Positions 7,101-40,795 of a stretch of DNA of 64,000 bases are shown in pieces (the first letter of the stretch is position 1; each line of letters begins with the position of its first letter). The notes beneath the pieces were generated by a model. It was not told the DNA's origin and did not search any database. It saw only the letters and a list, made by a program, of their open reading frames with translations. The position numbers and the translations under genes are program-made. This DNA comes from Lingula anatina. Its lineage: Eukaryota; Animalia; Brachiopoda. The stretch covers positions 12,190,651-12,254,650 of the forward strand of contig CM120647.1 of assembly GCA_051362555.1 (NCBI GenBank), read 5' to 3'.

Positions 7101-7530
7101 GCGAGACCATAAGAGGAGAGAATAAAAAAAAATACATTCAAGTAGTCTGTAATTACTGGTGCGATTGCAGCCATGGAAATTTTGAGTAAAGTATTATTGG
7201 CAAATAATTAAGCCGAGGAGATATAGTTTTTCTACCGAACACGGTTAACAGGTGGTATGACGGGCTGTTATACCGTAAAAGCTGCAGAATCAAAACAACT
7301 TGGATCGTATTCATTGATAGGCCTGCTCTGTATGTTCCTAGTAAGACGACTTCGGAAGTTTTTTTTTTTTCTTTCTTTTTGGTTTTGCGTTGAGAGAACG
7401 CTTGGTTTCACCTTTGACGTTGTAGAGCACGAGGACGGCCACAGCTGTTCATACCTCTGCGGTTTTAGTATTGAGTAGTCTTTACTCTTTCCAATATCGA
7501 CTGCGGACTTGCCACGGTACTGTATGTAGT

Positions 7531-7633
7531 AAATAATGCACTGTCCACGAGCCCGATATCCACGATAGCAGGCCGAGCGTCAGCGAGGCATGCTATCGTG
7601 GATATCGGGCGAGGGGGTAACAGTGCATTATTT
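7531..7633 (+). other. Left subterminal hairpin of the Crypton
   Basis: Outer arms AAATAATGCACTGT/ACAGTGCATTATTT; perfect 20-bp inner arms 7551-7570 and 7591-7610; tip GCC-GA-GC-GTCA-GC-GA-GGC. Confidence 0.9.
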
Positions 7634-7969
7634 GTCATACATACTAAGGGAAATCGTGCATGTTCCTCACCCAAACCCCCTAACTTTGAATAGAACACGC
7701 TGATATCACCGCGCATGGAGTGATATCAAAGAATGGACTTTTCCCGCGCTTACGCCGATAGTTTCTGTCTAATTGTGGTCACCGTCCAATTATTTTCATT
7801 TGTGTGAATGGTTTGTGGTTGCGTGTGCTTTGCCGGAGATATGGGTCAGTGGTTTTTCTGTGAGAAGTTGGCTGCCCATCTCCCGCACGTGGCAGTTTCC
7901 TGCCCATCTCCCGCACGTGGCAGTCACTCTCATTCATTTTTCGGCAAAGCTGACAGCTACATTGTAGAA

Positions 7970-10064
7970 ATGCTGTTTTCTGATGTTTCGGACGATGAAC
8001 TCGTGAGCGCAAGTCAAACGGCAGAGAAATCTCATTATGAAACTGTGCAACAATTTTCTGACATTTCTGACGACGAACTTATAAGCGCAAGTCAAAAGGC
8101 AGAGAAGTCTCATTTTGAAACTGTGCAACAATTTTCTGACATTTCGGACGACGAACTTATAAGCGCAAGTCAAAATGCAGAAATGTGTTATTTAGACGCG
8201 AAGCAGCAGCAGGAGCAGCAGGCTTTCTCGGCTGAGATGAAGGTGCGTATAACAAAAATACACATTTTTCATTTATGTTTATCTTTTCCATATGTATTAC
8301 CACTACATAATTATACGACAAAATGCATTTGTACCTTGACATTTGAACGGATGAGATTCATTGCTTTCGAAAAACGTGAAAATTGACATATTTGACAAAA
8401 TGCGTTTTCTTATGATATTATCCTGTTTTTAAGAGGGGAATAGCAGTAAAAGGTTCGCTATCCCAGTAACAGATGAGGAAATGGAGTTGCGCTCAAAAGC
8501 AAGCTTACCTAAGAACACGTTGCGTCGTAACATGTGGGCACTTAATACATGGAATAAGTGGGCAGTGGCGCGAAACAACACACGGTTGCACGGTTATCAA
8601 GGAAACGACATTGCCATTAATAAATGGAATAAAATAATGAAACCACTGACAAATCTCTCTGACGAGGAACTTCAGTACTGGATATCCAAATTTATACTGG
8701 AGGTGAGAAAAGAGAACGGTACGGAATATCCTCCAAGGACACTCCTGTCCCTTGTGATGGGACTGCAGAGTTACATTCGCACTGAGTCGAAGCGAGGGAT
8801 TGATTTATTAAATTCTGATCAATTTGTGGGTCTCCGACAAGTATTAGATTCTGAGATGAAACGTCTTTCTCATACTGGCCTTGGATGTAACACCAAAAAG
8901 GCCCAAGCAATTTCTTTGGAGGATGAAAGCAAGCTGTGGTCATCGAAAGCGCTGGGCGACTATAATCCCAAAGTACTCGTGCGTACACTGCACTATTTGA
9001 ATGGCAAAAATTTCGGATTACGAGGTGGACAGGAACATCGACGACTGCAATATAAATCACCTCAAATTACGCTCCACGAACCTGAAGGTGAAATTGCTTA
9101 TTTGAAATATTCAGAAGACGTCTCTAAAACGTGTCAAGGTGGCCTAAAACATCGCAAATTAGTACCAAAGCAAGTGACCCATTTTGCTAACGCAGACTGC
9201 CCGGAGCGATGCCATGTAAGGATTTACAAGAAATATATGGAATTATCCCCCAAAGATAACAGAGACGATTCTTTTTACCTCCAGCCTTTGCAGAAATGGC
9301 GGGAAAACGTATGGTTTAGTCGACAGCCGATTGGTGTGAATACCCTGTCAAACTTCACCCGAGAAACGTGTGAAAAGGCTGGCCTGAAAGGATTCTACAC
9401 CAACCACTCTCTGCGGGCAACTACTGCGACGCGTCTCTTTCGGAGAGGTGTCGATGAGCAGCTAATTATGACCAAAACAGGGCATCGTTCAGTCGAAGGT
9501 AAATATCATCAATACCATACATAGACAGCAAAATTTAAGTGCGTGTAACTGTTTTGTATTAATCTAAAATTTCACAATAATTTAGATTAATTCTTGATTG
9601 TCTCTCAACTGCTGTTGGCCTAGACTCCAGGCAAATTCATTTTGCCCGGAAGATCCCCACTGATGTCTTTTTAAGTATTATTTTATTTTATAGTACTAAT
9701 GGGTTTATGCACAGATTTTACAACATACACTTTGGTTACAATCAATTGTGATGTTATTTTCATTTACTCATTTATTAGGGAAAGGGGCTCATATTTTACC
9801 AGTATATTATCCTTTAGTATTATTTCGTTTCTTTCGGATATGTTTCTAGGCGTTCGTTCATATACACGGCCGTCTGAACAACAGGAACAACACATCAGCA
9901 GAATCCTTGACGGGAGTGATGATGGTCCGACGCCGCCGAAAATACGCACTCAGACAGACGTCAGTGATGAAAGTGTAACACAAACAGATTCTTCTTTGAG
10001 TAGACTTATCGATTTAACAAATCAGCCGGTTGTATTTCAGAATTGCAATTTCCAATTTCATTAA
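7970..10064 (+). CDS. Crypton tyrosine recombinase (DUF3504/ZMYM-QRICH1-KCTD1-like domain); spliced, exons ~7970-8242, ~8436-9498, 9850-10064
   Basis: Motifs EVRKENGTEYPP, FGLRGGQEHR (Arg), SKTCQGG (Lys), TNHSLRAT (His-x-x-Arg) and TGHRS (His). GT-AG intron 9499-9849 restores EG-VRSY, with the presumed catalytic Tyr at 9861-9863. The first donor AAG|GTGCGT (8243) is clear but its acceptor is uncertain. Confidence 0.88.
7976..8180 (+). repeat. 78-bp coding tandem repeat (26-aa acidic motif FSDISDDELISASQxAEKSHxETVQQ, ~2.6 copies) in the Crypton N-terminal exon
   Basis: Visible in the translation of ORF 7808-8386. Confidence 0.85.
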
Positions 10065-10126
10065 AATATAAATTAAATGCCTGACGTTGTTTCCTTCTTA
10101 TTTTTCTGTTTTCAGTGACTATTCAT

Positions 10127-10246
10127 GTAAAATTCGAGAAAAAAAGCGAGATATCGAGCTTTTTTTCGAGGATTTTACCGAGTCACCACGAGACACGCTA
10201 TCATAAAGTGCGAGCGAAAGCGAGCACTTTTTGATAGCGGGTCGAG
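10127..10246 (+). other. Two right subterminal hairpins of the Crypton (10127-10178 and ~10189-10246)
   Basis: GTAAAATTC-GA-GAAAAAAAGC-GA-GATATC-GA-GCTTTTTTTC-GA-GGATTTTAC, and CGCTATCATAAAGTGC-GA-GCGAAAGC-GA-GCACTTTTTGATAGCG. Confidence 0.88.
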
Positions 10247-13200
10247 TTAACAGCATTGTTTGTGTGAACTGAACCATGCGGTTGGTTGGGCAGTAACAAT
10301 GATATCAGTCCCTGCAATCCTTTTGTTTAGATATCAGCCCCGTGGTATGTATGGTCATATGAACAGTCTTGAGAAGCAAGGGCCCAAGATAGGAAAGGAG
10401 GGGCATTAAAAGACAAAACGTGTGCCTGATAAAAGGAATAGAGGTGACGCGACTTCTGTAAAAAAAAAATCAAAAGTTTTCTCTCTTCTAATCCCACCAA
10501 GAAGAAAGCACATTTTGATGAAATGCAAGCCATACGGAGTTAGTTATAGCTCAATTTAAGTTCAAGATCTTTGGCACCAATATAAGGACTTTTAACTGAA
10601 GAGAAAGGAAATATAATTGTCGACGCAGATGTAAACTGTCTAAAGTATACCGTATTATTAGGCAAAAGGTAATTTGCTAAGTCCCACGAGCGCCCTCATT
10701 CGTTCTCGTCTCGTGACATCCCGATTCAGGGGCTAGGTCGTTGTCGTGAAGGACTGACGTGCCTCATCCGGGACTCGAACCCGTGACCTTGCGTTACCAA
10801 GGTTGATGACGCTTTGGATGTCTCATTTGCATCCTTGCACGCTACCGACTGCTCCGTGACAGACCCGCCCACCCTCCGTACGTGCGAGTTTCCTCTTAAA
10901 GTAATCAATGGCAATTTTGAAGAAGTCAATTCTGGCAAAAAAAGAATGACACAGTAGTTCCTGTGACTCGAACCAGCGTCCGAGTATTTGTCTGTATGCC
11001 AGGCAGCAGAGTTACCACGCAGCCACGACAGCTCCGTTGATACGCAGTGATCAGATGGTAACTTTCAACCTCGTCACGGAGAGCGCCAGATTGGGTGTAC
11101 ATGTGCAGGCCTGCTGTCCCAATCGACAATCCGGGAGCCGCCTTTCAGCCCACGCAACCCCAGTCCCCGACATGAACGGTAAATTTCAGTGATGCACACG
11201 AAGTCGTGTTTGTCAACCCGACTCGGAGCTCGGAGTTTGTTTTATACTAAGATTGATTTTGGCTTTACCCACGATATTAAAGAGCACAGTGGGAACAGAG
11301 GCGGTTCACAACAGACGGGGTTTACTTTTAGCGAGACCATAAGAGGAGAGAATAAAAAAAAAATACATTCAAGTAGTCTGTAATTACTGGTGCGATTGCA
11401 GCCATGGAAATTTTGAGTAAAGTATTATTGGCAAATAATTAAGCCGAGGAGATATAGTTTTTCTACCGAACACGGTTAACAGGTGGTATGACGGGCTGTT
11501 ATACCGTAAAAGCTGCAGAATCAAAACAACTTGGATCGTATTCATTGATAGGCCTGCTCTGTATGTTCCTAGTAAGACGACTTCGGAAGTTTTTTTTTTT
11601 TCTTTCTTTTTGGTTTTGCGTTGAGAGAACGCTTGGTTTCACCTTTGACGTTGTAGAGCACGAGGACGGCCACAGCTGTTCATACCTCTGCGGTTTTAGT
11701 ATTGAGTAGTCTTTACTCTTTCCAATATCGACTGCGGACTTGCCACGGTACTGTATGGTCATATGAACAGTCTTGAGAAGCAAGGGCCCAAGATAGGAAA
11801 GGAGGGGCATTAAAAGACAAAACGTGTGCCTGATAAAAGGAATAGAGGTGACGCGACTTCTGTAAAAAAAAAATCAAAAGTTTTCTCTCTTCTAATCCCA
11901 CCAAGAAGAAAGCACATTTTGATGAAATGCAAGCCATACGGAGTTAGTTATAGCTCAATTTAAGTTCAAGATCTTTGGCACCAATATAAGGACTTTTAAC
12001 TGAAGAGAAAGGAAATATAATTGTCGACGCAGATGTAAACTGTCTAAAGTATACCGTATTATTAGGCAAAAGGTAATTTGCTAAGTCCCACGAGCGCCCT
12101 CATTCGTTCTCGTCTCGTGACATCCCGATTCAGGGGCTAGGTCGTTGTCGTGAAGGACTGACGTGCCTCATCCGGGACTCGAACCCGTGACCTTGCGTTA
12201 CCAAGGTTGATGACGCTTTGGATGTCTCATTTGCATCCTTGCACGCTACCGACTGCTCCGTGACAGACCCGCCCACCCTCCGTACGTGCGAGTTTCCTCT
12301 TAAAGTAATCAATGGCAATTTTGAAGAAGTCAATTCTGGCAAAAAAAGAATGACACAGTAGTTCCTGTGACTCGAACCAGCGTCCGAGTATTTGTCTGTA
12401 TGCCAGGCAGCAGAGTTACCACGCAGCCACGACAGCTCCGTTGATACGCAGTGATCAGATGGTAACTTTCAACCTCGTCACGGAGAGCGCCAGATTGGGT
12501 GTACATGTGCAGGCCTGCTGTCCCAATCGACAATCCGGGAGCCGCCTTTCAGCCCACGCAACCCCAGTCCCCGACATGAACGGTAAATTTCAGTGATGCA
12601 CACGAAGTCGTGTTTGTCAACCCGACTCGGAGCTCGGAGTTTGTTTTATACTAAGATTGATTTTGGCTTTACCCACGATATTAAAGAGCACAGTGGGAAC
12701 AGAGGCGGTTCACAACAGACGGGGTTTACTTTTAGCGAGACCATAAGAGGAGAGAATAAAAAAAAATACATTCAAGTAGTCTGTAATTACTGGTGCGATT
12801 GCAGCCATGGAAATTTTGAGTAAAGTATTATTGGCAAATAATTAAGCCGAGGAGATATAGTTTTTCTACCGAACACGGTTAACAGGTGGTATGACGGGCT
12901 GTTATACCGTAAAAGCTGCAGAATCAAAACAACTTGGATCGTATTCATTGATAGGCCTGCTCTGTATGTTCCTAGTAAGACGACTTCGGAAGTTTTTTTT
13001 TTTCTTTCTCTTTGGTTTTGCGTTGAGAGAACGCTTGGTTTCACCTTTGACGTTGTAGAGCACGAGGACGGCCACAGCTGTTCATACCTCTGCGGTTTTA
13101 GTATTGAGTAGTCTTTACTCTTTCCAATATCGACTGCGGACTTGCCACGGTACTGTATGGTCATATGAACAGTCTTGAGAAGCAAGGGCCCAAGATAGGA

Positions 13201-20263: not shown

Positions 20264-20713
20264 TGTTGTGTATAAGTAGGTCAGCTTATGACGTCACCAT
20301 ATCGCGAGAGCATGAGTATCTCGAGAGCGTTAGTTTAGACAGACGCTGGAATATGAACGGATAGGAGACGGAGTTTTGTTTTGGGACCTTTTGAAGGAGA
20401 ATATTTTTATTTGGAACCTATTTACCACTGAACCGACACTCATATTTTCTACTGGAACTTGCATCGTAATTACTGTGGGATTTCATCGGACACTTTCACT
20501 GAACTTTGAGCCGATTTATCTCCATTCACTCTCCAGTCGACGGATTCACATCGGACTTTCACACAGGACACTTCATGCTTTCAGGTTTATTTGTGTATTA
20601 AGAATAGCTTATTGTTATTGTCATTAGTTTATTTAGTTTTAATAAAATATTAAAACTTCTTTAAATCTTTTGTCATTGATTTTTGCTGGCATTGGGTACT
20701 CTGACCCGTAACA
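20264..20713 (+). repeat. 5' LTR (450 bp)
   Basis: TGTTGTG...GTAACA; matches 25551-26004 except for a 4-bp indel; AATAAA at 20641. Confidence 0.96.
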
Positions 20714-20717
20714 GAAT

Positions 20718-20735
20718 TGGGGGCTCGTCCGGGAT
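20718..20735 (+). other. Primer binding site complementary to the tRNA-Pro 3' end
   Basis: TGGGGGCTCGTCCGGGAT is the reverse complement of ATCCCGGACGAGCCCCCA and lies 4 nt after the 5' LTR. Confidence 0.92.
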
Positions 20736-20810
20736 AATTTTTGATTTTCTTATCGGTAGCAATTTTTGTGTGCAAATTTACTACAGTAGCCAGCAGAAAT
20801 CAATTCCACC

Positions 20811-23800
20811 ATGGTATTCTCTGTCACTGAATTTCTCCAATCTCCATCGGTGGCAGACTTTGAAGCTTTGAAAAAAGATGAGTTAGTTGCCATAGCTTTA
20901 CATTTCAATTTAGTTGTGAAATCATCCATGAAAAAACAAGAGATTAGAGGAATAGTAGTGAAGAAACTTGTAGATGAACAAATATTTAAGTCTGATGATT
21001 TACCGCCAATAGTTAAGGCAGAAACCAACATTTCAGAGTATGAATTTGAACTGGAGAAGTTAAGAATAGATAGACAGTTTCAGTTAGAAAAAGAAAGGTT
21101 AGAAAGAGAAGAAAGAGATAAAGATAGGCAGTTTCAGTTGGAAAAACTAAGATTAGAGCACAGTGAAAGATCAACTTCACATGTCAGGTATGAATTTGAT
21201 GCGGCAAAGAACATTAGGTTAGTTCCTAAATTCCAAGAAAAATCAGTTGATAAATTTTTCCCACAATTTGAAAAAATAGCAGAACATCTCCAATGGCCGT
21301 TTGAAGTATGGCCCACACTTTTACAAAGTGTTTTGGTAGGGAAAGCTGCTGAGGTGTATTCAGCTCTGAGTTTAGCAGAAAGCTCAGATTATGAAAAGGT
21401 GAAGTCGGCTATTTTAAAGGCATATGAATTGGTGCCAGAAGCTTACAGACAAAAATTTAGGAAACAGAAGAAAATAGAAACTCAGACTTACGTAGAATTT
21501 GCTAGAGAGAAAGAAGACTTATTTGATAAGTGGTTTAGATCCAAAAAGATTGAAAAGAATTTTGCAAATTTACGTCAACTTATTCTAGTAGAAGAGTTTA
21601 AGGAATGTGTTTCCCAAGATCTAAAAATCCATTTAGAAGACAAGAATGTTGAAACTCTTGAGCAAGCAGCAGTTATTTCGGATTCATACGCCCTATCCCA
21701 TAAGAAAAACTTTGTACCTACATGTAGATCTCAGTCTCCCATCCAGTCTCCCAAAAACAATATTCTCTGTCCCAAGTCACCACATTACCGTGGTTCCACA
21801 ACCCCACAGCCGGGTCGTTTTGAGTCACCTCAAACTGTAGGGTCATCCCCAACTTGCAATTACTGCAAGAAAAAGGGTCATCTCATTGGTGAATGTATCA
21901 AACTTAAGATGAAAAATGACCTTCTAAAGCGACAGACAAATGCCTGTGCAGCTTTAAGAAATGATAGGAAAGCCTTAAATTTGTTACGTGCTGACACTCC
22001 TGATGTCCAGGATTCAAAGTCCAGTTTTGTTGATTCTGTGGAGGATCATTATAAGCCCTTTTTGTCTCAGGGATTTGTTTCACTCAGTGATTCTAGCAAA
22101 GCTTTACCTGTTCAGATTTTGAGAGATACTGGAGCTGCCCAGACTCTGCTGTTAGAGGGCGTGTTGCCTTTGTCTGAGGAGACGTCTATTGGTAGTTCAG
22201 TTTTATTACAGGGTGTTGAGCTAGGTGTCATTGATGTTCCCCTTCACAGAGTTTATCTGAAGTCAGATTTAGCTACTGGACCAGTTATTGTAGGTGTTCG
22301 ACCTACTCTTCCCATTCAAGGCATTTCCTTGTTGCTAGGCAACGATTTAGCAGGTGGTAAAGTGATACCTGATCCCATTGTTTGTGAGAAAACAATTTCT
22401 GATGTCGTTTCTGATGATGAGGAAGACGACTTGTACCCAGCCTGTGTTGTTACGAGGGCAATGGCTTCAAAACAAAAGGCTGAGGCTGATGGTACTCTAG
22501 TAGTGGATAAAGCTGATCCACTTAAAGAAATTTCACTTAGTGAAACGTTTATGACAACCATTGATGACAGTTTACCTGTAGAGTCATATGAAACCAAAGT
22601 GCCAGTTGACATTAATGTGTCTCTGAAGGCATCTACTGTTGAGTATGATTTGTCATTTGACAAGGGTAAGGACACCCTCAGTCATGAACAGTTACTGTTG
22701 GAACAAAGTAAAGATCCAGATATTGTCAGACTTACTAAAAGAGCTCTTCCAATGGAAGAAACAGCAAAAGTCGGAGAGTGTTTTTACCTCAAAGACAGCA
22801 TCTTTATGCGAAAATGGCGTCCACCTGATGCATCACCTGACGAGGTGTGGCGTATTATTCACCAGGTAGTGGTTCCTGTAGTATATCGCAAGGATATCAT
22901 GAGTTTAGCTCACGACACCCCTATGGCAGGTCATTTAGGTGTAAATAAGACCTGTATCAAAATTTTGAGTCATTTTTATTGGCCAAAATTGAGAAAGGAT
23001 GTGTCTGAGTTTTGCAAGTCTTGTCATGTATGTCAGATGGTAGGAAAACCAAACCAGAAAATACCATCTTTTCCCCTGCAACCCATTCCAGCCTTTGAGG
23101 AACCTTTTAGTAGGGTGTTAGTTGATTGTGTAGGACCTTTGCCTAAAACTAGGTCAGGGAATCAGTATTTACTTACCATAATGTGTACCTCCACTCGGTT
23201 CCCTGAAGCTATACCTCTGAGGAATATTAAAGCAAAGACCATAGTCAAGGCCCTTGCTAAATTTTTCTGTTTTGTAGGTATCCCCAAGGCTATTCAGTCA
23301 GACCAGGGCTCAAACTTTATGTCAGGGTTGTTTCAGCAGGTCATGCATGAATTAGGTATTAGGCAGTACAAGTCTTCTGCTTACCACCCTGAGTCTCAAG
23401 GTGCACTGGAGCGTTTTCACCAGACCCTCAAAACCATGATAAAAACACATTGTTACCAGAATGAAAAGGACTGGGATGAAGGGGTTCACCTTGTGTTGTT
23501 TGCTGCACGAGAAGCTGTGCAGGAGTCCTTGGGGTTCAGTCCCTTTGAATTAGTGTTTGGTCATACTGTCAGGGGACCATTGAAATTATTGAGGGAGAAA
23601 TGGTTGACTGAGACTAGTGATCTCAATCTTTTAGACTATGTGTCTACTTTCAAAGAAAGATTATTCAGTGCTTGTAAATTAGCTCAAGAAAATCTCAAGG
23701 GTTCTCAAGCAAAAATGAAAACATGGTATGATAAAAATGCTAGGAACAGAGAGTTCAAACCAGGTGAAAAAGTACTGGTATTTTTACCTCTCAATGGTCA

Positions 23801-24521
23801 ACCTTTACAAGCCAGATATTTTGGCCCTTACGAAATTGAAAGCAAGATTAGTGATGTTAACTATGTAGTTAAGACACCAGGCAGGCGAAAAGAAAAGCGA
23901 GTGTGTCATGTTAACATGTTGAAAAAGTATGTTGATAGAAGTGATTTGAAGTCAGTAGAATCCGTTTCAACTGTGACCAATGTTAAGTCATGTACTGAAA
24001 ATGAAATTAGTGTGGACACCAGTGAAAATGACTTTAACCAAAGTGCTTATTTGAAGAATTCTGAAATCCTGAGAGACCTTGATGTGAAACTTGAACATTT
24101 GACCAGTCATCAGAAAGAAGAGGTTCAACGATTGATTACTGATTACCAGGATATTTTCCCTGATGTTCCAAAAAAGACGAATGCTGCTCTTCATGACATC
24201 AGTGTAGGGGATGCTCAGCCTATCAAACAGCACCCATACAGACTGAATCCAATAAAGCTTCAGTATATGAGAAAGGAAGTTCAATATATGCTGGAAAATG
24301 ACATTATTGAACCAAGCAGTAGTGACTGGAGTTCACCATGCATTCTTGTCCCAAAGTCAGATGGAACTTATCGCTTTTGCACAGATTTCCGCAAAGTAAA
24401 TTCTGTTACCAAAACAGACTCCTATCCTATCCCACGAATTGATGATTGCATAGATAGAATTGGCAGTGTGAAATTTGTCAGCAAATTTGACTTGCTGAAG
24501 GGTTATTGGCAAGTACCCTAA
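20811..24521 (+). CDS. Gag-protease-integrase-RT (N-terminal part) polyprotein, ending at a premature TAA
   Basis: CCHC knuckle CNYCKKKGHLIGEC; protease LRDTGA; integrase HHCC (HDTPMAGH...CHVC) with catalytic core (VDCVGP, QSDQG, ERFHQ); then RT start (SPCILVPK, DFRKVN, DLLKGYWQVP*). Confidence 0.93.
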   Translation: MVFSVTEFLQSPSVADFEALKKDELVAIALHFNLVVKSSMKKQEIRGIVVKKLVDEQIFKSDDLPPIVKAETNISEYEFELEKLRIDRQFQLEKERLEREERDKDRQFQLEKLRLEHSERSTSHVRYEFDAAKNIRLVPKFQEKSVDKFFPQFEKIAEHLQWPFEVWPTLLQSVLVGKAAEVYSALSLAESSDYEKVKSAILKAYELVPEAYRQKFRKQKKIETQTYVEFAREKEDLFDKWFRSKKIEKNFANLRQLILVEEFKECVSQDLKIHLEDKNVETLEQAAVISDSYALSHKKNFVPTCRSQSPIQSPKNNILCPKSPHYRGSTTPQPGRFESPQTVGSSPTCNYCKKKGHLIGECIKLKMKNDLLKRQTNACAALRNDRKALNLLRADTPDVQDSKSSFVDSVEDHYKPFLSQGFVSLSDSSKALPVQILRDTGAAQTLLLEGVLPLSEETSIGSSVLLQGVELGVIDVPLHRVYLKSDLATGPVIVGVRPTLPIQGISLLLGNDLAGGKVIPDPIVCEKTISDVVSDDEEDDLYPACVVTRAMASKQKAEADGTLVVDKADPLKEISLSETFMTTIDDSLPVESYETKVPVDINVSLKASTVEYDLSFDKGKDTLSHEQLLLEQSKDPDIVRLTKRALPMEETAKVGECFYLKDSIFMRKWRPPDASPDEVWRIIHQVVVPVVYRKDIMSLAHDTPMAGHLGVNKTCIKILSHFYWPKLRKDVSEFCKSCHVCQMVGKPNQKIPSFPLQPIPAFEEPFSRVLVDCVGPLPKTRSGNQYLLTIMCTSTRFPEAIPLRNIKAKTIVKALAKFFCFVGIPKAIQSDQGSNFMSGLFQQVMHELGIRQYKSSAYHPESQGALERFHQTLKTMIKTHCYQNEKDWDEGVHLVLFAAREAVQESLGFSPFELVFGHTVRGPLKLLREKWLTETSDLNLLDYVSTFKERLFSACKLAQENLKGSQAKMKTWYDKNARNREFKPGEKVLVFLPLNGQPLQARYFGPYEIESKISDVNYVVKTPGRRKEKRVCHVNMLKKYVDRSDLKSVESVSTVTNVKSCTENEISVDTSENDFNQSAYLKNSEILRDLDVKLEHLTSHQKEEVQRLITDYQDIFPDVPKKTNAALHDISVGDAQPIKQHPYRLNPIKLQYMRKEVQYMLENDIIEPSSSDWSSPCILVPKSDGTYRFCTDFRKVNSVTKTDSYPIPRIDDCIDRIGSVKFVSKFDLLKGYWQVP

Positions 24522-25475
24522 ACTGACAGAGCTAAAGAAATTTCAGCATTTGTGACTCCGGATGGATTGTACCAGTACAAAGTTATGCCATTCGGGATGA
24601 AGAACTCGCCGGCCACGTTTCAACGGATGATTCATTTACTTCTGCGTGATCTTAAGGGATGTGAAGCCTATATTGATGATGTCATTATCTACAGTGACAC
24701 CTGGAAGGAGCATCTCCAGATTATGCGTGAATTCTTCAACATACTGGTGAAAGCAAATCTCATTGTGAACCTGGCAAAGAGTGAATTTTGTCAGGCTACT
24801 GTAGAGTATTTAGGTCACAGAGTAGGTCAGGGTTTAAGTACACCTATCATGGCTAAGGTAGAAGCCATCTCAGAGTTTCCAGTTCCTACCAACAAGAAAG
24901 AATTGATGAGATTTCTAGGTATGGCAGGGTTTTACAGAAAATTTTGCCCAAATTTTTCCTCTGTTGTTAGTCCACTTACTAACCTCTTAAAAAAGAGGGT
25001 GATATTTAATTGGACAAAGGACTGTGATGAGTCCTTCGGGAAAATTAAGGCAATCCTTATGAGTAGTCCAGTTTTGTCAGCTCCAGATTTTGAGAGGCAA
25101 TTTAAACTTGCTGTTGATGCTAGTGATGTAGGAATAGGAGCTGCTTTATTCCAGGAAAATGATGACAATGTAGATAGAGTTGTTTCTTACTTTTCAAAGA
25201 AACTTACAAAATGTCAGAAAAACTATTCTACTATTGAGAAGGAATGTCTTGCTTTGTTGTTAGCTTTACAACACTTTGATGTGTATTTGAATGTTACTTT
25301 ACATCCTATTCTTGTCTACACAGACCATAATCCACTCACATTTTTGCACAAAATGTCAAATAAGAATCAGAGACTGACAAGGTGGAGTTTGTTGTTACAA
25401 GAGTATGATATTGTTATTAAACATATTAAGGGCAAAGACAATGTCATTGCAGATGCCCTTTCAAGAGTGTCATAA
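24522..25475 (+). CDS. Remainder of pol (RT YIDD motif and RNase H), same frame as the upstream ORF after the stop
   Basis: MPFGMKNSPATFQR, YIDD, DASDVGIGA, YSTIEKE, TDHNPL and ADALSR motifs. Confidence 0.92.
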   Translation, partial: TDRAKEISAFVTPDGLYQYKVMPFGMKNSPATFQRMIHLLLRDLKGCEAYIDDVIIYSDTWKEHLQIMREFFNILVKANLIVNLAKSEFCQATVEYLGHRVGQGLSTPIMAKVEAISEFPVPTNKKELMRFLGMAGFYRKFCPNFSSVVSPLTNLLKKRVIFNWTKDCDESFGKIKAILMSSPVLSAPDFERQFKLAVDASDVGIGAALFQENDDNVDRVVSYFSKKLTKCQKNYSTIEKECLALLLALQHFDVYLNVTLHPILVYTDHNPLTFLHKMSNKNQRLTRWSLLLQEYDIVIKHIKGKDNVIADALSRVS

Positions 25476-25540
25476 TTGGACATATATATGCATTATTTAG
25501 AGTGTAAAATTTAAGTTTTCATTGATATTCAAACTTTTTA

Positions 25541-25550
25541 AGGGGGGAGG
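25541..25550 (+). other. Polypurine tract
   Basis: AGGGGGGAGG immediately before the 3' LTR. Confidence 0.9.
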
Positions 25551-26004
25551 TGTTGTGTATAAGTAGGTCAGCTTATGACGTCACCATATCGCGAGAGCAT
25601 GAGTATCTCGAGAGCGTTAGTTTAGACAGACGCTGGAATATGAACGGATAGGAGACGGAGTTTTGTTTTGGGACCTTTTGAAGGAGAATATTTTTATTTG
25701 GAACCTATTTACCACTGAACCGACACTCATATTTTCTACTGGAACTTGCATCGTAATTACTGTGGGATTTCATCGGACACTTTCACTGAACTTTGAGCCG
25801 ATTTATCTCCATTCACTCTCCAGTCGACGGATTCACATCGGACTTTCACACAGGACACTTCATGCTTTCAGATAGGTTTATTTGTGTATTAAGAATAGCT
25901 TATTGTTATTGTCATTAGTTTATTTAGTTTTAATAAAATATTAAAACTTCTTTAAATCTTTTGTCATTGATTTTTGCTGGCATTGGGTACTCTGACCCGT
26001 AACA
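25551..26004 (+). repeat. 3' LTR (454 bp)
   Basis: Direct repeat of 20264-20713. Confidence 0.96.
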
Positions 26005-28522
26005 ATGAAAACTGTCTAAAGTATACCGTATTATTAGGCAAAAGGTAATTTGCTAAGTCCCACGAGCGCCCTCATTCGTTCTCGTCTCGTGACATCCCGA
26101 TTCAGGGGCTAGGTCGTTGTCGTGAAGGACTGACGTGCCTCATCCGGGACTCGAACCTGTGACCTTGCGTTACCAAGGTTGATGACGCTTTGGATGTCTC
26201 ATTTGCATCCTTGCACGCTACCGACTGCCCCGTGACAGACCCGCCCACCCTCCGTACGTGCGATTTTCCTCTTAAAGTAATCAATGGCAATTTTGAAGAA
26301 GTCAATTCTGGCAAAAAAAAAATAATGACACAGTAGCTCCTGTGACTCGAACCAGCGTCCGAGTATTTGCCTGTATGCAAGGCAGCAGAGTTACCACGCA
26401 GCCACGACAGCTCCGTTGATACGCAGTGATCAGATGGTAACTTTTATCCTCGTCACGGAGAGCGCCAGATTGGGTGTACATGTGCAGGCCTGCTGTCCCA
26501 ATCGACAATCCGGGAGCCGCCTTTCAGCCCACGCAACCCCAGTCCCCGACATGAACGGTAAACTTCAGTGATGCACACGAAGTCGTGTTTGTCAACCCGA
26601 CTCGGAGCTCGGAGTTTGTTTTATACTAAGATTGATTTTGGCTTTACCCACGATATTAAAGAGCACAGTGGGATCAGAGGCGGTTCACAACAGACGGGGT
26701 TTACTTTTAGCGAGACCATAAGAGGAGAGAATAAAAAAAAACATTCAACTAGTCTGTAATTACAGCCTTGGAAATTTTGAGTAAAGTATTATTGGCAAAT
26801 AATTACGCCGAGGAGATATATTTTTTCTACCGAACACGGTTAACAGGTGGTATGACGGGCTGTTATACCGTAAAAGCTACAGAATCAAAACAACTTGGAT
26901 CTTTTTCATTGATAGGCCTGCTCTGTATGTTCCTAGTAAGACGACTTCGGATGTTTTTTTTTTTTCTTTCTTTCTTTTTGGTTTTGCGTTGAGAGAACGC
27001 TTGGTTTCACCTTTGACGTTGTAGAGCACGAGGACGGCCACAGCTGTTCACACCTCTGCGGTTTTAGTATTGAGTAGTCTTTACTCTTTCCAATATCGAC
27101 TGCGGACTTGCCAGGGTACTGTATGGTCATATGAACAGTCTTGAGAAGCAAGGGCCCAAGATACGAAAGGAGGGGCATTAAAAAACATAACGTGTGCCTG
27201 ATAAAAGGAATAGAGGTGACGCGACTTTTGTAAAAAAAAATCAAAAGTTTTCTCTCTTCTAATCCCACCAAGAAGAGAGCTCATTTTGATGAAATTTCAA
27301 GCCATACGGAGTTAGTTATAGCTCAATTTAAGTTCAAGATCTTTGGCACCAATATAAGGACTTTTAACTGAAGAGAAAGGAAATATAATTGTCGACGCAG
27401 ATGAAAACTGTCTAAAGTATACCGTATTATTAGGCAAAAGGTAATTTGCTAAGTCCCACGAGCGCCCTCATTCGTTCTCGTCTCGTGACATCCCGATTCA
27501 GGGGCCAGTTCGTTGTCGTGAAGGGCTGACGTGCCTCATCCGGGACTCGAACCCGTGACCTTGCGTTACCAAGGTTGATGACGCTTTGGATGTCTCATTT
27601 GCATCCTTGCACGCTACCGACTGCTCCGTGACAGAGCCGCCCACCCTCCGTACGTGCGAGGATCCTCTTAAAGTAATCAATGGCAATTTTGAAGAAGTCA
27701 ATTCTGGCAAAAAAGAATGACACAGTAGCTCCTGTGGCTCGAACCAGTGTCCGAGTATTTGCCTGTATGCAATGCAGCAGAGTTACCACGCAGCCACGAC
27801 AGCTCCGTTGATACGCAGCGATCAGATGGTAACTTTCAACCTCGTCACGGAGAGCGCCAGATTGGGTGTACATGTGCAGGCCTGCTGTCCCAATCGACAA
27901 TCTGGGAGCCGCCTTTCAGCCCACGCAACCCCAGTCCCCGACATGAACGGTAAACTTCAGTGATGCACACGAAGTCGTGTTTGTCAACCCGACTCAGAGC
28001 TCGGAGTTTGTTTTATACTAAGATTGATTTTGGCTTTACCCACGATATTAAAGAGCACAGTGGGATCAGAGGCGGTTCACAACAGACGGGGTTTACTTTT
28101 AGCGAGACCATAAGAGGAGAGAATAGAAAAAAAAAACATTCAAGTAGTCTGTAATTACTGGTGCGATTGCAGCCATGGAAATTTTGAGTAAAATATTATT
28201 GGCAAATAATTAAGCCGAGGAGATATAGTTTTTCTACCGAACACGGTTAACAGGTGGTATGACGTGCTGTTATACCGTAAAAGCTACAGAATCAAAACAA
28301 GGTGAATCGTATTCATTGATAGGCCTGCTCTGTACGTTCGGAACATGAAGTAAAACTACATTTAGAAGTTTGCAATGTTCCTAACTACGCGTGACTGATA
28401 CATAATTTAAACATGCGTTATACTTCTTCCGCTCCCTGCACTCAGACTGTCCTACTAGCAGGGTAGATCTATCTCAGCATGGACTGTCGTTCAGGCCCAG
28501 TCAATGTAATCACCTTAATTTT

Positions 28523-32193: not shown

Positions 32194-34374
32194 CAGGCAA
32201 TCTGGCAATCTGGCTCTTAGGTTCTTTGTAAAGGCATTGAGGGAAATGTCACTACCTGTAGTTTATCTATATCTGTTCTAGGCAGGGTGGATAGTAAGAA
32301 AGGGCTATGGATATTATAGGGAAATAAGCTTATGTTTGATTTTCACCTCGATCAACATTTTGGACATTGACGGGACCAGGATTTGCCGATGCTTGTGTGT
32401 GTGTGTGTGTGTGTGCGTGTGTGTGTGTGTGTTTGCGTGCGAGCGCGTGTGTGTGTTGGGAGGGACACAACGAATGGTTTGGCAAATATGAATTAAATTA
32501 CTAAGAAATGTTTACTGCGTTACTCGTATGTACTAAACAGGGATGGGATGCAACTTGCTCACTTTTGTCTCGTTTTTCTTGTTTCACTGCTCTCTAGGGA
32601 AGGTAGACGAAAGGGTAACTCTGAAGATAATAGAGGGTATTATTTTGGCCTCCTTCCCCTGCGATTCGCAGTTTTTTTTTTCTATTTTTAGCTCTAGATT
32701 TCATTTGCCAAGAACGCCGTACGTAAAATCTTACACTGACATCTTAAGTGTCTACGGGCGGGCTCCGTTCTGTACGTTAACATTATATGCGTCTGCGTGT
32801 TATTTCTCTAACATGACCTTGAGGGAATAATCGGTCAGTGGGTTGAAAAGAGAGCGTATAGCTCCTACGATTCTTAGTGCATGTGGAAACAAGAAAACGC
32901 AACACTTCAGATTCATACAATCGAATTACTCAAAGATAAAAAATTGAACTATTGATAAATTGTTTTGCCTCCTAAAACCACCAAAGATGGTAGGCAAAGA
33001 GACCAACAACAGGTTAAACCATCATCACAATCAAGTTGCACCAACACTGCCCGTAGGGATTTACTCGCAGTACACATGCTCTGTACGGACATTGCATGGC
33101 AAATGCAATCTAGGCTTATTATAGATAGTCCGATTTGCATGGATTGACAAAAATTATTTATCGATGTTTCCGAACTGATCTCGACCGCATCGTCATCCCA
33201 GGGTTTGGAGAAGAGTAGTCATAACCAGAATTTATGTACGTATTATTTTTTTCTGGATGCTTTTTTTTCTGTAGGTCCTGTAGAATAACAATCTATTGTG
33301 CAACATACGTGTATGAAAGCACCTTTTAGTGTCAGTTTTATATTGGCATCATCCTCGAATGGTAACCCTCACTTCACGCAGAAAATCGCACAATCTCGTC
33401 TCGTATATGACGTCAAGTCAAGTCTATCTGAGATGATTTTCGTTTTGATTTCCGAACAATATCAATACATACATGTTACTTGAAGGATTAAAGAACTAAA
33501 ATAGAAATTTCAAGCAGAATTCATGGTTAAGTGACGTTAAAAAAGCGAGGTGTGCAATCAGTAGCTTTTTTTCCGTGGATACCAAATATTTTTCACTTCC
33601 GTTCAACTTGCATTTAGCCAACACATTTAATTTTTTCTGTACTTGTGAATATATATCATTTTTTTCCTTGCAAATAGGATATTTACGAATTATTCCTCAT
33701 GCAAATAAATAAAAAAAGAGACGCAATCGTATTTACACATAATTAATATTTTATTCATTTTTGTAATATATTCGGTCCATAAAATATATAACAGATGATG
33801 TGAAAAAAGTGACTTATATTAAGGGAGCCAAGTGTCACTGTGTAAAAACATCCATTTCGACAGCTCATATAGACGTTTGACGGCTTGATGTCTCTTCGAA
33901 GTGGGCGTGGCATATGATTGACATAATGACGTGAGGAGTGGTGGTTGTGGGTGCATGGTCGTCTTGTTCAGCTGTAATTGTCGGTTCTCCTTGATTCAAC
34001 TTGAAAGTTTGACTGTAAGAAATGAAAAAAAATATAGATATGAAGTCCATGTCTTGTTTCCAAAAGAGCTCTTTTAGCAACAGTGCTGTGGCAGCGTGGA
34101 GGAAGGACAGTGAAATGGCACAGCTAGGTGACAACAAAACGGTTCAAACTGACACTGAGAAGTCTGACCTTCCTAGCAAATGCTACATGTAAATAGTAAA
34201 GAATACTTTGTCAATAATTTACACAGTAAAGGGAAACAAAACTTGTAAAATCAAACTCAAACGAACTACATTGCGATACGTTTTGAAAATTGAAGGCGTG
34301 TGACGTTTTTCTTTCAGCCATCCAGTAGATTGAAGTACCAAATGTTAAAAAGTAACCCACCTTTCTCTTCAAAT

Positions 34375-34698
34375 CTAACCATAGAATGGCTTCTTAAGGC
34401 CATGAGCATAGCCGAAGTTGATTGGGCGCTTGTAGCCGAAGTTCAGGGGACGGACATAGCCGAACTTAGCTGGGAAGCGAAGACCACCGTATCCGTAACC
34501 GCCGTAGCCTCCGTATGGGAGCCCGTGTCCACCGTATCCGCCTACTGGGATACCTTGGCTATAGCTCTGGGAACCTCTGTAGCCGTTTGGGAAGTAGAGG
34601 AGTCTTCCGCTGTTGTCTGGGGCAGGGTAGTACTTGGTGCCGGGGACAGCGGCGGCGATGGCCACGATGGCAATAAGGCAGGCGGCTTTGAGCATCAT
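34375..34698 (-). CDS. Secreted Gly/Tyr-rich structural-type protein, copy 1 (107 aa)
   Basis: MMLKAACLIAIVAIAAA signal peptide and GGY repeats; TATATAA box upstream (~34773-34779); 3' UTR intron 34360-34013; paralogues at 40796, 45017 and 51084. Confidence 0.9.
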   Translation of the reverse strand: MMLKAACLIAIVAIAAAVPGTKYYPAPDNSGRLLYFPNGYRGSQSYSQGIPVGGYGGHGLPYGGYGGYGYGGLRFPAKFGYVRPLNFGYKRPINFGYAHGLKKPFYG

Positions 34699-35693
34699 CT
34701 TGATGTTTTCGGTGTTCTGGAGAGCGTTCGGTGATTCAGGAGGCTTCTGACCATCCAAGTCAGAGGCCCCTCTTATATACTTGACCAATGGTTAATACAT
34801 CGCGTGGTCAGAGAGATTTTCAAGACAACACGTATTATATTGTTTGCGTTAATGACACGGTACATGGCCAGTTGCTGTGAGAATGTGCTGAATGCTTGTT
34901 AGTGAGATTTGAGATGATTTTCAGAGATTGACGTTCAAAATAGCAACATTAGATGCGATGGAAGAAAAAAACATTTTCCATGGTTATAAAAAATTTCGCG
35001 ATTGAATCTATTGTAAGTCATTCATAGATATGTAACGAGAATGACAGAAATGAATACATGGTCATTTTCACATCATATTGTCATATTGTCAACGACTATT
35101 TAAGCTATTTCTCTTATTAAGAAAGAATAACGTATTGTAGCAAAACCGAAAATAATAATGTGTGTTAAAACATGATTACCTAAAGATCCTTGAAACGTTT
35201 TGTATTAAATTACAAAAAAAAAATTATCGAAACAATGTCCATTGTAACTAAAGAACGCTGCGTTGTTCTGTCATGGTAAATGACTGATATATTTATGAAC
35301 ATCTATGATTAATTCTAGTGATGGACAATAATTTAAAACCCTTCAAGTATTTATAATCATTTATGATTAACTATAATAGTATCCATTTGCCAGCTGCAAC
35401 AAAATGTGCAAGAAAACAATGTGCAAGTGTCTATACCACTTAATGTATCACAGTTTTTAAATGATTTGAATTGGCACTTTGGCGTGTTCTTGGACAAGAA
35501 GCATTTGTTAGCTGACAAGACATCGAAAGACCAAGGCAATTGTTCATCGTTTAATTAATCTGCCCCAGATTAAATGACAGGTGTAATTAGAGGGGGAAGA
35601 GGACACGAGACACTGTGTGGGGATAGTGACAAGTGGGGATTGTGATTAACTGGGGCCAAATTTTTGGCACCTGGGTGCCATAACAAACTCTCT

Positions 35694-35729
<36 letters not shown>

Positions 35730-36249
35730 AACATTAAAAGCTTTACAACTATTTCTATTACAACCAAAAACCGACTTAGTGGAGGAATGATGCAAGGTAT
35801 TTTGGAAAATTACCGAGATCTTAATGTGTCTGTGGAATGAAACAATTTTAAATGATTCGAAGTAAATGCTGTGAAAGGGACGGGGTGCAGTTTTCCATTA
35901 AAATGACAAGTTGAAGAGAAGTCTGTTTTCTAATAAATCATGTAGGCCTCTGAAATAATTGCTTGATTTATGTATTATTTACCATGAATTATTTATATTG
36001 CAATAAAAAGACCCAAAGCTCATTGTTTGCCATTAAAAGATTTTTAGGTGGTGATACTCAAACAAATATCTTTAAGGCTTTACCTAAAAGAAAGAGTCAT
36101 ATCCTTATGTGTTAGTAGAGAGAATACCCCCCCTTCTATAAAACCAAAGGGAAAAAAGGACAGAAAAAAGCTGACCGTGAATGACGACCCTGTCAGTGTC
36201 AGCACACCTGACGATTTTTTTCTTTAAGATACAAGTCGACTTCTTTTAT

Positions 36250-36313
<64 letters not shown>

Positions 36314-37126
36314 GATAACTCAATAACACATGTATATCTTCTGTGCTTTCAATGATGCCGTAGTCAACACCAATGGAGAAAAACTGGGCTGACGCTAGGC
36401 CGTCACCTCGATCTGTTGCTGACTCAAAAAACCACAAGCGAACTCTCTAATAGCAAACAGGCTTGCATGATGACAAAAAAAAAAGGTTAAGTATTTGAAA
36501 CGAGTTTGATGATATTGGCGCATGTGAATGTAGCGTGAATGGGGTTTCACAAAAACAATCGGGTCGTGTGATAAAACATGGTTCCACGTCCTGAAGTGCC
36601 TCTCAAAAACAACAAAGAAAATGGATAAATAAATTACCTGTTTGGCTTAACATTAAGACAAACAGGTAACCATTGGCTTTATTAAAATATATCATATTCA
36701 GCCTGACTCGTACTAGTAGAAGGGGGTAATTGTAGATATATCGGGGATAAACGTCTGTGATAAAACCAATGACACACATAATGAGGATGGGTATCTTGGC
36801 CATTGATAAAAGCCATTGTCGGTAATTAGAGATCTCATTTAAGATACTGTGTGCATGTGCCTGTTTTACCTTGTAACCACAATAAATGAACACTTGGCTA
36901 GTTGGGGGTGTGGCGGCAGATCCTGATATTTTTATTCATCTTGAAGACAATTACATTTTTACCTAGATATTTAAAGGTGTTTATCGTTTCGTTAAAAGGG
37001 CGACGTCGCCATTCTAACAAGGCGTTGTCATTATTCTGCATATCCGTGGAGGTTGTTTGCTATTTTTGAATGAGGTATTTATATATTCTGAATTGTAAGC
37101 AGATCTTCACGCTTTAGAGAACAACA

Positions 37127-37294
37127 CAGGGGCGGATCCAGAGATATTTTCTGACAATCTTCCAAATGATCTTTGTTGAACCATCCTTCATTTTTGACCG
37201 TCTTCCGACAGAAAAAAATAGATACTCGTCATTGCAAACTTGAAAATCTGACCGTCTTCCGGAAAACCCGGAGGACGGTCTCAATCCACCCCTA
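37127..37294. mobile_element. 168-bp MITE with 5-bp TSD CAACA
   Basis: Ends CAGGGGCGGAT...ATCCACCCCTA; the paralogous site at ~43857 is empty; a second, end-truncated copy lies at ~40462-40625. Confidence 0.8.
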
Positions 37295-37693
37295 CAACAG
37301 TATTTTTTCACAATATCCTCAAATCAAGCAGCCATGATGGAGCTGGGGAGAAAAAACATTACGTGTATATCGTTTTAAGCGACAGTGAAGTTGGTCTCCA
37401 TATGTGTTGCTTACAATCCCCTCTTGTCACTGTTCCAACAAGGTGTCGCGTGTCCTTCCCTTCCCTCTAATTATACCTGTCATTGTAATCAGGGACAGAT
37501 TAATTACACGATGAACAATTGCCTAATTAAGTATCTTTGTCTGTCGTCAACTGACAAACGCTTCTTGACCTACAAAATCCAAAGGAACCAAGTCAAATAA
37601 GATAGACGCTGTGATGCATTTAGAGCTTTCCACACTTGCATTTTGTTCTCGGACACATTTTGATAAAGCACGCCTCTGATTAAGATGTAGTAT

Positions 37694-39847
37694 TAGCCTT
37701 TTTCATCTTTTCCGGAAATGGAAATTGCATTGTGGGGAGGGGAGCCTGCTACGTCGAAACACTTACAGCGGTGCTAAAAACCATGGCTGGGTTTACGTGC
37801 TTTTTGTCCCGCTACTACAATAACAGTAAGCGAGATCGACACATGAGGTTTAATAAGGTCCCAACAAACCCGTTAGAATGAAAAATATGGTAGAAAGAAA
37901 GGAAAATATAGCAGGTTTGGATCATTAGCAGGGCACCGCGTTTGCGCTGAACATTTCGAAGGCGGGAAGAAAAACTATAATATTAGGAGATCAACGGTGC
38001 TTTAATAAAAAACAGAAATGCTTAGTTAAACAACGGATATAACGAACTATCGGCAAACAGAATTCGGGGGTAAAAATTGCGAGAAAAAAAAACATTATAA
38101 AGATTTGAAGAAAAAATTGAAGAATAGGCCGGGGCCTAAAAATTAAGAAAAGACTTCAAGCATGAGATTATGGAAAAAGAAAGTAAAAGCTGTGAAGTTT
38201 TACACGGGGATTCTACTTACAAAAAATTCAAGAATTTTCACGACTTTTTGTGTAACAACAAAGAGAAGGTTTGAAAAGTTTTGTATGTAATATCCTTTTT
38301 GTGTGTGTCTTATTGATAAGTGATCATTTAAATGTTGTAGACCCATCACAGGTTTTAGTCTCTAATAACCCTTAGCAGGGTGGGTTCTATTTTTTTTAAC
38401 GTGAGACGTTAATAAAATTTTTATTATTATGTATTCAGTCCCGTATACGTATTACTGATTTGTACAAACGGGGCTCATATTATCAAGATCAACAGAGACA
38501 TACGAAGAAGAAAGTACATCGGCTCTTGTTGAACGCGTTACCGACGAAATAAAAAGTTATTTATTTCTGAACTCAATGACAAGAGAATGGGAAAATACAA
38601 AAAATGCAGAAAAGCCTTTCTGTAAGCTACACGTACATAATACATGTATGGTAAAGACAAAATGGATAATAAACATAATCCAACAACGTATTTGTAAAGT
38701 AATACAAATATGCTTAGTATTAAAGTAGGCCTACGTATATTTAACTGTCTTAGATAGTTGAAAAGTATGAAATGTGTGGGAAACACTTTATTTGAATGAT
38801 TTAATTGTCTGTGATTGAAAACGATGAAAATACGCATGAAAACATTTTAAAATCAAAGAATTTGGCCTCTTGCTATAATTTTGTTTTTGTTTCAGTTTGA
38901 CAAAATTTTCATACTTGTCAGACCGAAAGGCTGACATTTTTTACCTGTCGTAAATTTGTAGATATATACTAGAGTACGTAAGACACGATAAACTTTAATT
39001 ATCGGCTGGGAAAGAGTCGAGAATTCCTGTCTCACTTATTTAACACTTAAAAGGTTTTAATTACATAGGAAAGGTCGTAGTTTAGGCCGCCCGCCTAACC
39101 GAACAATTGAACAAGTAACACCTGATGCCTTATCAGGTACCAAACGATTTAATCGGTTCACCGACGAACGATCTGCGTGTCAGTTTTACCTGTATACACA
39201 GTAGCTACGAGTCAAACAATGCAGGAAATCTTTTCATTTTATCACTTTAAAAATCTCTTAAGATATCCTTCAAACAATACATAAAAATCGTAATGAATTG
39301 ACACTGCCGTTACATGAGGTGATATCGCCGCAGCTTGCATATATACATGTACAAAATTGTGAAGACGTAGGCCTGCGCACCTGTCCACACTCTTGAAAGC
39401 TGTGTACGAGCCTACTGGCTATTTTGATTATATATATATAAAAATAACGAGTCTCTTTCGCATATCTTTATTTTCGGAAGCATTTAAAAGAACTCCGAAG
39501 CTTTAGTTCGTAATCACTATTGAAAATGCAGCCAAGGCTCGGACGCTTAGGTGAAGTCTAGTTGTAAAGCGCATCGTATTTAAACTGAGAAAGAAAATAT
39601 TTATTGCTTGATTCCACGTCCAAATACCTGTCCTTGCCTACAGTTTACGCATTTCTGTGCTTCAGCCACCTTTTAAGTTTGACAGAAAGCAATACACGCT
39701 TTATACGACCTTTTTATATGCGCACCTTGTACATCATCTACACCTAGCATTGCCATGCTGGAAACAGCAGAGGACCACTATGACCCCTGTGGCGCGCGGT
39801 TCCTGTTATGCGCACTTCGTATTTCCGCAAAAGATGAAAAAGGTCTA
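37694..39847. mobile_element. 2.15-kb non-autonomous DNA transposon with ~27-bp TIRs and 6-bp TSD TAGTAT
   Basis: TAGCCTTTTTCATCTTTTCCGGAAAT ... ATTTCCGCAAAAGATGAAAAAGGTCTA; TAGTAT at 37688-37693 and 39848-39853; absent from the duplicated block at ~44235; no transposase ORF. Confidence 0.82.
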
Positions 39848-40461: not shown

Positions 40462-40625
40462 GGGGCGGATCCAGAGATTTTTTTCTGACAGTCTTCCACA
40501 TTTTCCATTTTTGTTGATCCATCCTCCATTTTTGACCGTCTTCCGACAGAAAAATTAGGTACTCATCAATGTAAACTTAGAAATTTGACCGTCTTCCGGA
40601 AGACCCAGAAGACAGCCTCAATCCG
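40462..40625. mobile_element. Second copy of the 37127 MITE, ~90 bp upstream of the TATA box of Gly/Tyr gene copy 2
   Basis: Similar to 37127-37294; absent from the paralogous promoter at ~44846. Confidence 0.75.
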
Positions 40626-40714
40626 GGCATGTACCGAGACATTAACGCAAACAACATAATACGTGTTGTCTTGAAAATCTCTCTGACCACGCGATGTAAT
40701 AACCATTGGTCAAG

Positions 40715-40721: not shown

Positions 40722-40795
40722 GAGGGGCCTCTGACTTGGATGGTCAGAAGCCTCCTGAATCACCGAACGCTCTCCAGGTCACCGAAAACATCAAG

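Follow-up and report, generated by a model that had tools for sequence, protein, structure and literature searches.

The Crypton transposition model of 2003 is said to start from a circle made by ordinary site-specific recombination. Animal Cryptons fit this model badly, because no terminal repeats have been found in them, and for CryptonA the termini are entered as n.d. in supplement rows of Kojima and Jurka (2011; PMC3212892; with the exception of PMC13465315, all sources are cited here for the parts of their text that were available). The element described below lies in a window of 64,000 nucleotides from Lingula anatina (GenBank assembly GCA_051362555.1, contig CM120647.1, positions 12,190,651 to 12,254,650, forward strand), the window being the whole stretch of DNA that was analysed, and it is a CryptonA by its domain content. 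It shares with CryptonA as described in PMC3212892 a lone DUF3504 tyrosine recombinase gene, an animal host, a length of 2–3 kb, abundant gene-less derivatives and the lack of terminal inverted repeats. Beyond that description, it adds a complement of the junction of its own ends, a 2-nt bulge and a strand bias; the words hairpin and palindrome are absent from the available part of PMC3212892. We consider it probable (roughly 0.7) that this is a CryptonA whose joined ends pair with an internal complement and which moves as a folded single strand, by an integron-like one-strand exchange that is resolved by replication. It also seems fairly probable that the folded strand is recombined by structure and not by sequence, integron-like chemistry having been reached separately on a Cre-like enzyme, with a site that assembles only at the joined ends.

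In CTX phage, a single-stranded circle folds back into the recombination site attP(+) for XerCD and integrates with the help of replication. That phage relies on host enzymes and one chromosomal site, whereas the Crypton encodes its own enzyme and has loose targets. The likeness to the integron site attC and its integrase IntI comprises a site that is folded from one strand and recognised mostly through its structure, an unpaired spacer by the cut, a purine skew on the recombined strand and one exchange resolved by replication, all demonstrated for attC (PMC5027507) and proposed here for the Crypton. Conversely, attC is a contiguous site of 57–141 bp (PMC5027507), whereas the full Crypton site would form only on end joining; the Crypton has extra bases on the junction strand beside the cut, and its recombinase is encoded inside the element and is structurally closer to Cre than to IntI. 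No integron cassette array was seen at the locus, and the element is not filed as an integron. DIRS-1-type retrotransposons (PMC8969392) share an internal stretch complementary to both termini as well as a tyrosine recombinase. Unlike them, the Crypton has no reverse transcriptase, gag or inverted terminal repeats, keeps predicted introns, and its complement closes a long terminal hairpin. A tyrosine recombinase is also common to bacterial SE elements, which have circles and a one-strand bias (PMC9345347), to Starships, which form circles (bioRxiv 10.64898/2026.09.21.753150), and to CryptonF-1_cRei, which shows excision together with copy gain (PMC9977147). In contrast to the present element, a folded junction site is not described for any of the three in the available texts, and CryptonF requires a near-identical 5-bp target. 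The terms hairpin, circular and single-stranded do not occur in a 2026 CryptonA paper (PMC13465315), nor do hairpin and single-stranded in the available text of the Starship circle preprint (bioRxiv 10.64898/2026.09.21.753150). The literature searched gave no description of a junction-complement layout for Cryptons, although a Repbase note on ends could exist.

The predicted fold at the left end is made up of the following parts:
7526–7544, forward strand: left junction arm, consisting of an imperfectly paired zone that exceeds its partner by 2 nt and then a perfect 14-bp stem at 7531–7544
7551–7610, forward strand: upper stem of the left hairpin, arms 7551–7574 and 7587–7610 (repeat search and folding)
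7575–7586, forward strand: hairpin apex, a tandem GA/GA mismatch (7575–7576 with 7585–7586) closing the mini-hairpin GCGNNAGC (7577–7584)
7620–7650, forward strand: internal complement of the joined ends, in which 7620–7633 pairs with the left arm, 7637 stands opposite 10352, and 7637–7650 complements 10339–10352

A repeat search listed the two halves of this arrangement apart, namely 7531–7544 with 7620–7633 (14 nt, 100%) and 7636–7650 with 10339–10353 (15 nt, 87%). When only the left stem was used to set the register, the terminal 12 nt at the right matched the internal complement at 10 positions for an offset of 2 nt and at 1–5 positions for the other nine offsets; the chance of a 10/12 match is ~1e-4 per offset. 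Compared with shuffles, the left hairpin gave a folding z of −11.9 for the top strand and −10.7 for the bottom strand.

The ends of the element were placed as follows:
7526–10352, forward strand: CryptonA element proper (empty sites; starts and ends of other copies; register common to relatives)
7521–7526, forward strand: left copy of the hexamer TGTATG, with 7521–7525 likely target DNA resembling the right end (empty sites, other copies)
10348–10353, forward strand: right copy of the hexamer, with 10353 likely the first target base (empty sites, other copies)
10303–10352, forward strand: right end retained in gene-less derivatives, its last 14 nt complementing 7637–7650 (derivative joints, other copies)

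An initial annotation had claimed that the reverse complement of 7620–7650 matches the joined-end junction with its TGTATG, and these sequences were confirmed as written. Its extent for the element, 7521–10353 with a 6-bp core, holds in so far as the hexamer, read directly in the sequence, stands at both ends; the duplicated core is, however, likely in part a chance match of the target and not obligatory, the crossover falling inside it. The insertion occupies one unit of a 1.4-kb tandem array. As the element is absent from 13 sister units, empty sites delimit its ends: the hexamer is single in 13/13 empty units printed and double in the filled one. Other copies from the same organism (reads and contigs) start at 7523, 7524, 7525 or 7526 and end at 10352, and just 0–3 of the five bases at 7521–7525 are common to other copies. 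Because of these starts and ends, and because relatives give an equal register, the crossover likely lies at 7525/7526 and 10352/10353. A constant direct repeat of 4–6 bp at both ends of all copies, as in the Goodwin model, was not found, the hexamer pair being present in the window copy; terminal inverted repeats are absent from the element, and no true target duplication was seen in its copies and relatives.

The element is multicopy and dispersed, with flanks that differ at both ends between copies. A joint from 7929 to 10303, found in 4/4 DNA runs, marks gene-less derivatives, and contig depth was ~50-fold greater at the left end than at the gene, which is a hint only. Thus, the derivatives retain the left hairpin and ~50 nt of the right end and omit two hairpins further downstream:
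10127–10243, forward strand: hairpins at 10127–10178 and 10192–10243 with top-strand GA mismatches, the second with a GCGAAAGC apex, omitted in the common gene-less derivative

A metagenome scan yielded 80 loci with relatives of the element, and scans of viral contigs and prokaryote genomes yielded none. For three families, A (L001), B/C (L005, L020) and D (L025 and others), ends were set by copy-to-copy alignment in which the hairpin was not used; together with the window element this makes four groups only with independently fixed ends. Read by eye from the alignments, 11 of the 12 representatives have 4–12 contiguous matches ending at the crossover with a 2-nt offset, and in each of these 11 the junction strand is 2 nt longer than the internal complement. 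Manual anchoring gave 32/35 matches for L035 and 33/35 for L041. Right ends match their own complement at 6–12 of 12 positions, compared with 1–7 between unrelated groups, and the recombinases of different groups are ~30–55% identical in their best segments. A distant relative examined afterwards, L037, matched at 12/12 for offset 2 and at 2–4 for other offsets, with the layout on the strand opposite its gene. Across an alignment of eight related left ends, both sides were changed in 21 of the 53 stem pairs and the GA/GA mismatch columns stayed unchanged. An unanchored partner search over 34 entries reached p ≤ 0.05 for the upstream hairpin only in L005, L020, L017, L035 and L041. Conservation and covariation in related families, to which the initial annotation had looked, were thus found in the sense that the layout recurs with different sequences and right ends fit their own complement better than those of unrelated groups.

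The same data bear on a fossil origin, i.e. an old fold-back duplication of the circle junction that is kept in step by template switching or gene conversion and has no present role. Palindrome arms can homogenise without selection, and the distal part of the complement is degenerate in D-type families and gene-less copies, as a fossil would be. Conversion should, however, erase mismatches and not keep a fixed 2-nt excess and GA/GA columns across families, and in integrated copies the right end lies 2–3 kb away from the complement; we therefore hold this origin to be very improbable.

Some minor observations on the relatives may be added. The distant relative L037 covers 1–2048 of its contig, which stops 12 nt beyond a right-to-left junction (tandem pair or circle). 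A GC-box-like motif, GGCGTGG, stands just inside the known or presumed right end, 3' of a long hairpin, in L056 (3040–3061) and L069 (~2160–2180), and also just past 2884 in L043 and at ~1200–1218 in L053. An edge shared by L057 and L078 was considered as a right element end and rejected; the left ends of these two loci were not found.

The favoured strand is evident from the kind of mismatch it carries. Across ten left hairpins, the junction (top) strand has 78 G.A mismatches and 26 tandem GA/GA, the complement 10 and 0, respectively; the representatives are related, so that such pooled counts are not independent trials and overstate independence. A fresh set of eight hairpins gave 26 vs 7 for G.A and 6 vs 0 for tandem GA/GA, and 20 control hairpins from flanking DNA gave 54 vs 56 and 2 vs 1. 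The virtual junction folds more stably as the junction strand in 11/12 representatives. In L037 the mismatch bias tracks the junction, there antisense to the gene, whereas the sense strand is favoured in most families. A duplex palindrome gives no reason for a strand-specific mismatch type, and tandem sheared G.A pairs are stable. Of 19 hairpins, 8 carry the mini-hairpin GCGN(N)AGC at the centre of the junction strand, and none carries it there on the complement (expected, 0.0055 per window scanned); the stability of the motif is unusual in DNA and much lower in RNA (PMC13037366). Taken together, the G.A and mini-hairpin bias points to one folded DNA strand.

This bias is also what tells against the complement being a duplex decoy or autoregulatory binding site 5' of the gene, kept 2 bp short to prevent recombination, with the palindrome as a by-product. 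Its position, ahead of the start codon and inward of the left end, would suit such a site; being an inverted copy of both arms, it would bind the recombinase, and a binding site too should covary with the ends. Still, binding to duplex DNA would not account for tandem G.A mismatches and mini-hairpin loops being confined to one strand, nor for the 100–260 nt of compensated stem between the sites. We rate it as distinctly unlikely.

The position of the crossover was counted on hand-listed ends, 33 left and 30 right, from families A, B/C and D (the left end of L017 is off by one base). At the right junction, positions −6 to −2 were kept in 30/30 and −1 in 29/30, and +1 matched in 13/30. At the left junction +1 was kept in 33/33, with matches at −1 in 13/33, at −2 in 31/33 and at −3 in 27/33. 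Hence target resemblance is found mainly at −2 and −3, and the crossover holds one position over the 63 ends although the targets are unmatched. Passive resolution of a two-strand exchange over an unmatched 6-bp spacer should, by our reasoning, move the spacer to the other end in about half of the copies, and it had moved in none of 27 right ends, the three that run into other elements being set apart. A single exchange followed by replication fits this. Cutting of the bottom strand was set aside: on the homologous side, matches are fewest at the base adjoining the crossover (13/33), and the bias favours the top strand.

Three right ends run directly into the left end of another element, at 4122/4123 in L049, 2178/2179 in L050 and 6580/6581 in L033, the elements belonging to different Crypton families. 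Because these head-to-tail joins sit exactly at the crossover, Crypton ends likely serve as targets for each other.

On the favoured strand the crossover is preceded by the well-paired arm and followed by the bulged zone. A tyrosine recombinase remains attached to the 3' end at the cut, and the strand with the 5'-OH is the one that it transfers. Given this attachment, a top-strand cut would place the bulge where attC has its unpaired spacer. The mechanism that we propose would begin with the top strand of the left end folding, either on a replication template or as a cruciform. A single top-strand exchange would then join 10352 to 7526, and replication would release a top-strand circle, such that one daughter can retain the element. 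Once the junction in the circle has paired with 7620–7650, the cut would have a well-paired arm on its 5' side and, on its 3' side, a bulged spacer comparable to the central spacer that stays unpaired in attC. The recombinase would cut the folded strand and the matching target strand just past a weak motif (two conserved bases, −3 and −2), and replication would resolve the resulting junction. Invariant ends and the lack of a true target duplication are what this model predicts. If structure leads recognition, the fixed 2-nt bulge would adjoin the cut, and the tandem G.A pairs and mini-hairpin loops would select the strand. Folded single-stranded recombination, as suggested by the initial annotation, is thus supported comparatively, by strand-specific signs and by a junction pattern fitting one strand exchange. 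An active CryptonF excised cleanly and also gained copies (PMC9977147). The copy-out model would explain this combination, the ends compared here being those of CryptonA only.

The main rival reading is that the fold is real and has an earlier role. A single-stranded copy could be closed with the complement as its splint or template, or second-strand synthesis could start from the hairpin as a primer (a DIRS-like proposal), with the recombinase then acting on a duplex circle with a strand bias. Every strand-bias observation fits this, the layout equals the internal complementary region of DIRS (PMC8969392), mini-hairpins mark priming sites in single-stranded phages (PMC13037366), and one-strand exchange is known from SE elements, for which the available text finds no attC-like repeat (PMC9345347). 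A splint, however, should pair well on both sides of the nick, whereas all the alignments read show the bulged zone beginning 1–2 bases 3' of the crossover; it is not evident what splinting would gain from the conserved 2-nt excess, and no reverse transcriptase open reading frame (ORF) was found in the element. An earlier role appears unlikely.

Several observations weigh against a folded single-stranded junction site. In the window element itself an unanchored local-alignment search gave p~0.25, so that the window alone is suggestive and the weight comes from the relatives. Most copies have A at 7645, which breaks one wobble pair (variant rows listed, 40 of 304 and 40 of 181), and among these rows one subfamily differs also at 7648 and 7650, leaving the distal complement loose within the family. 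No circle junction, i.e. an end-to-start joint, occurs among the rows listed (15 of 42 in one contig comparison), and one contig joins 10352 to 7523 via 35 intervening letters. Among the relatives, right ends were located with the aid of the complement in the single-copy loci L029, L056, L067, L052, L026 and L035 and in L041, and these weigh less because locating an end in this way is circular. When matches over 12 nt are counted without gaps, the 2-nt offset is best in just 7/12 representatives: other offsets score equally or better in L029, L025, L028 and L026, and for L035 the automatic anchor failed. Three loci (L021, L022, L069) have the left hairpin and no convincing partner in their contigs. 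On account of these and of about a dozen loci without an end or unclear, the layout is not shown for all CryptonA; L043, L058, L039, L045, L073, L066, L065, L070, L074 and L046 were left out of the layout counts, and L032 and L034 end too early. For G.T wobbles the bias is weak (38 vs 25), and the 14 downstream hairpins do not agree on a strand, 3 favouring the top and 7 the bottom. The relatedness of the pooled representatives noted above counts here as well. The modelled recombinase is closer in fold to Cre than to an integron integrase (chain 2a3v), which aligned with a lower Z of 14.6 (rmsd, root-mean-square deviation, 4.0; 261 residues). Finally, the fixed crossover would also fit if duplex DNA were exchanged with a strand bias, in the manner of bacterial SE elements (PMC9345347).

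What the folded-junction reading would offer is a new, testable mechanism for a known family; the chemistry of the Crypton group has not been worked out. To our knowledge, the known single-strand reactions of tyrosine recombinases are bacterial, and if true the present one would take place in eukaryotes. Cut position, strand and substrate are now given, and the mechanism is therefore testable with a few oligonucleotides and one purified enzyme. If structure does lead, this would explain the missing terminal repeats of animal Cryptons, their loose targets and the gain of copies during excision. A rule for calling Crypton ends follows, and the question is raised whether structured DNA is a ligand of ZMYM2-4 and QRICH1, the domesticated relatives.

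The recombinase gene and the repeats preceding it were delimited as follows:
7866–7921, forward strand: two 28-nt direct repeats 5' of the gene (repeat search)
7970–8242, forward strand: recombinase exon 1 with acidic 78-nt repeats (sequence, protein record P0001, donor site; splicing predicted)
8433–9498, forward strand: recombinase exon 2 with QRICH1, DUF3504 and phage-integrase domains and R262, K297, H390, R393 and H416 (P0001 numbering)
9850–10064, forward strand: recombinase exon 3 with the putative catalytic tyrosine Y425 of P0001 (P0001, motif)

The best database protein, P0001 (labelled Lingula anatina), is 99% identical. Domain matches were obtained to PF12012 (DUF3504; E 1.7e-33) as well as to PF25561 and PF00589. 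The recombinase is the only gene, since the element holds no other ORF of at least 200 aa, and an ORF and domain search of the element found neither reverse transcriptase nor RNase H. The R-H-R-Y residues expected of a catalyst are kept (R262, H390/R393, H416 and Y425 of P0001), unlike in domesticated ZMYM/QRICH1, and R262, K297 and H390 are invariant across 112 aligned proteins. A protein model with a mean predicted local distance difference test score (pLDDT) of 83.5 aligned best to Cre-type chains (Z 18.4, rmsd 3.1, 281 residues). Three RNA runs, of which ~6, 6 and 25 in 100 were covered, gave too few reads on the gene for splicing to be visible, which says nothing on expression.

The gene model also bears on whether the structure could form in RNA, the element being copied by a reverse transcriptase supplied in trans. 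DIRS elements provide a precedent, and most families favour the gene's sense strand. Two predicted sense-strand introns, the antisense fold of L037 and the far lower stability of the mini-hairpin in RNA (PMC13037366) speak against it and make copying through RNA barely credible.

The predicted acceptor of intron 1 (8431–8433) reads AA in the window copy, whereas all aligned contigs of four DNA runs have G at 8432; the window copy of the gene may thus splice differently. Three 78-nt repeats (7976–8209) encode the acidic N-terminal repeat, with one fewer in P0001. In family A loci, long 27-nt repeat arrays lie 5' of the recombinase match.

The 1.4-kb tandem array that hosts the insertion spans 1–20254 and 26005–28339 of the window, with units 96–99% identical. 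ARAGORN found no tRNA genes in the window and Rfam gave chance-level matches only, short tRNA-like pieces being visible by eye in the array. Inside the array lies a Gypsy-type long terminal repeat (LTR) retrotransposon at 20264–26004, whose LTRs (20264–20713 and 25551–26004) are 99% identical and whose coding region consists of two abutting ORFs. Self-comparison of the window further revealed nested older repeats and two short tandem arrays at 33700–46400, 47330–47587 and 61380–62078.

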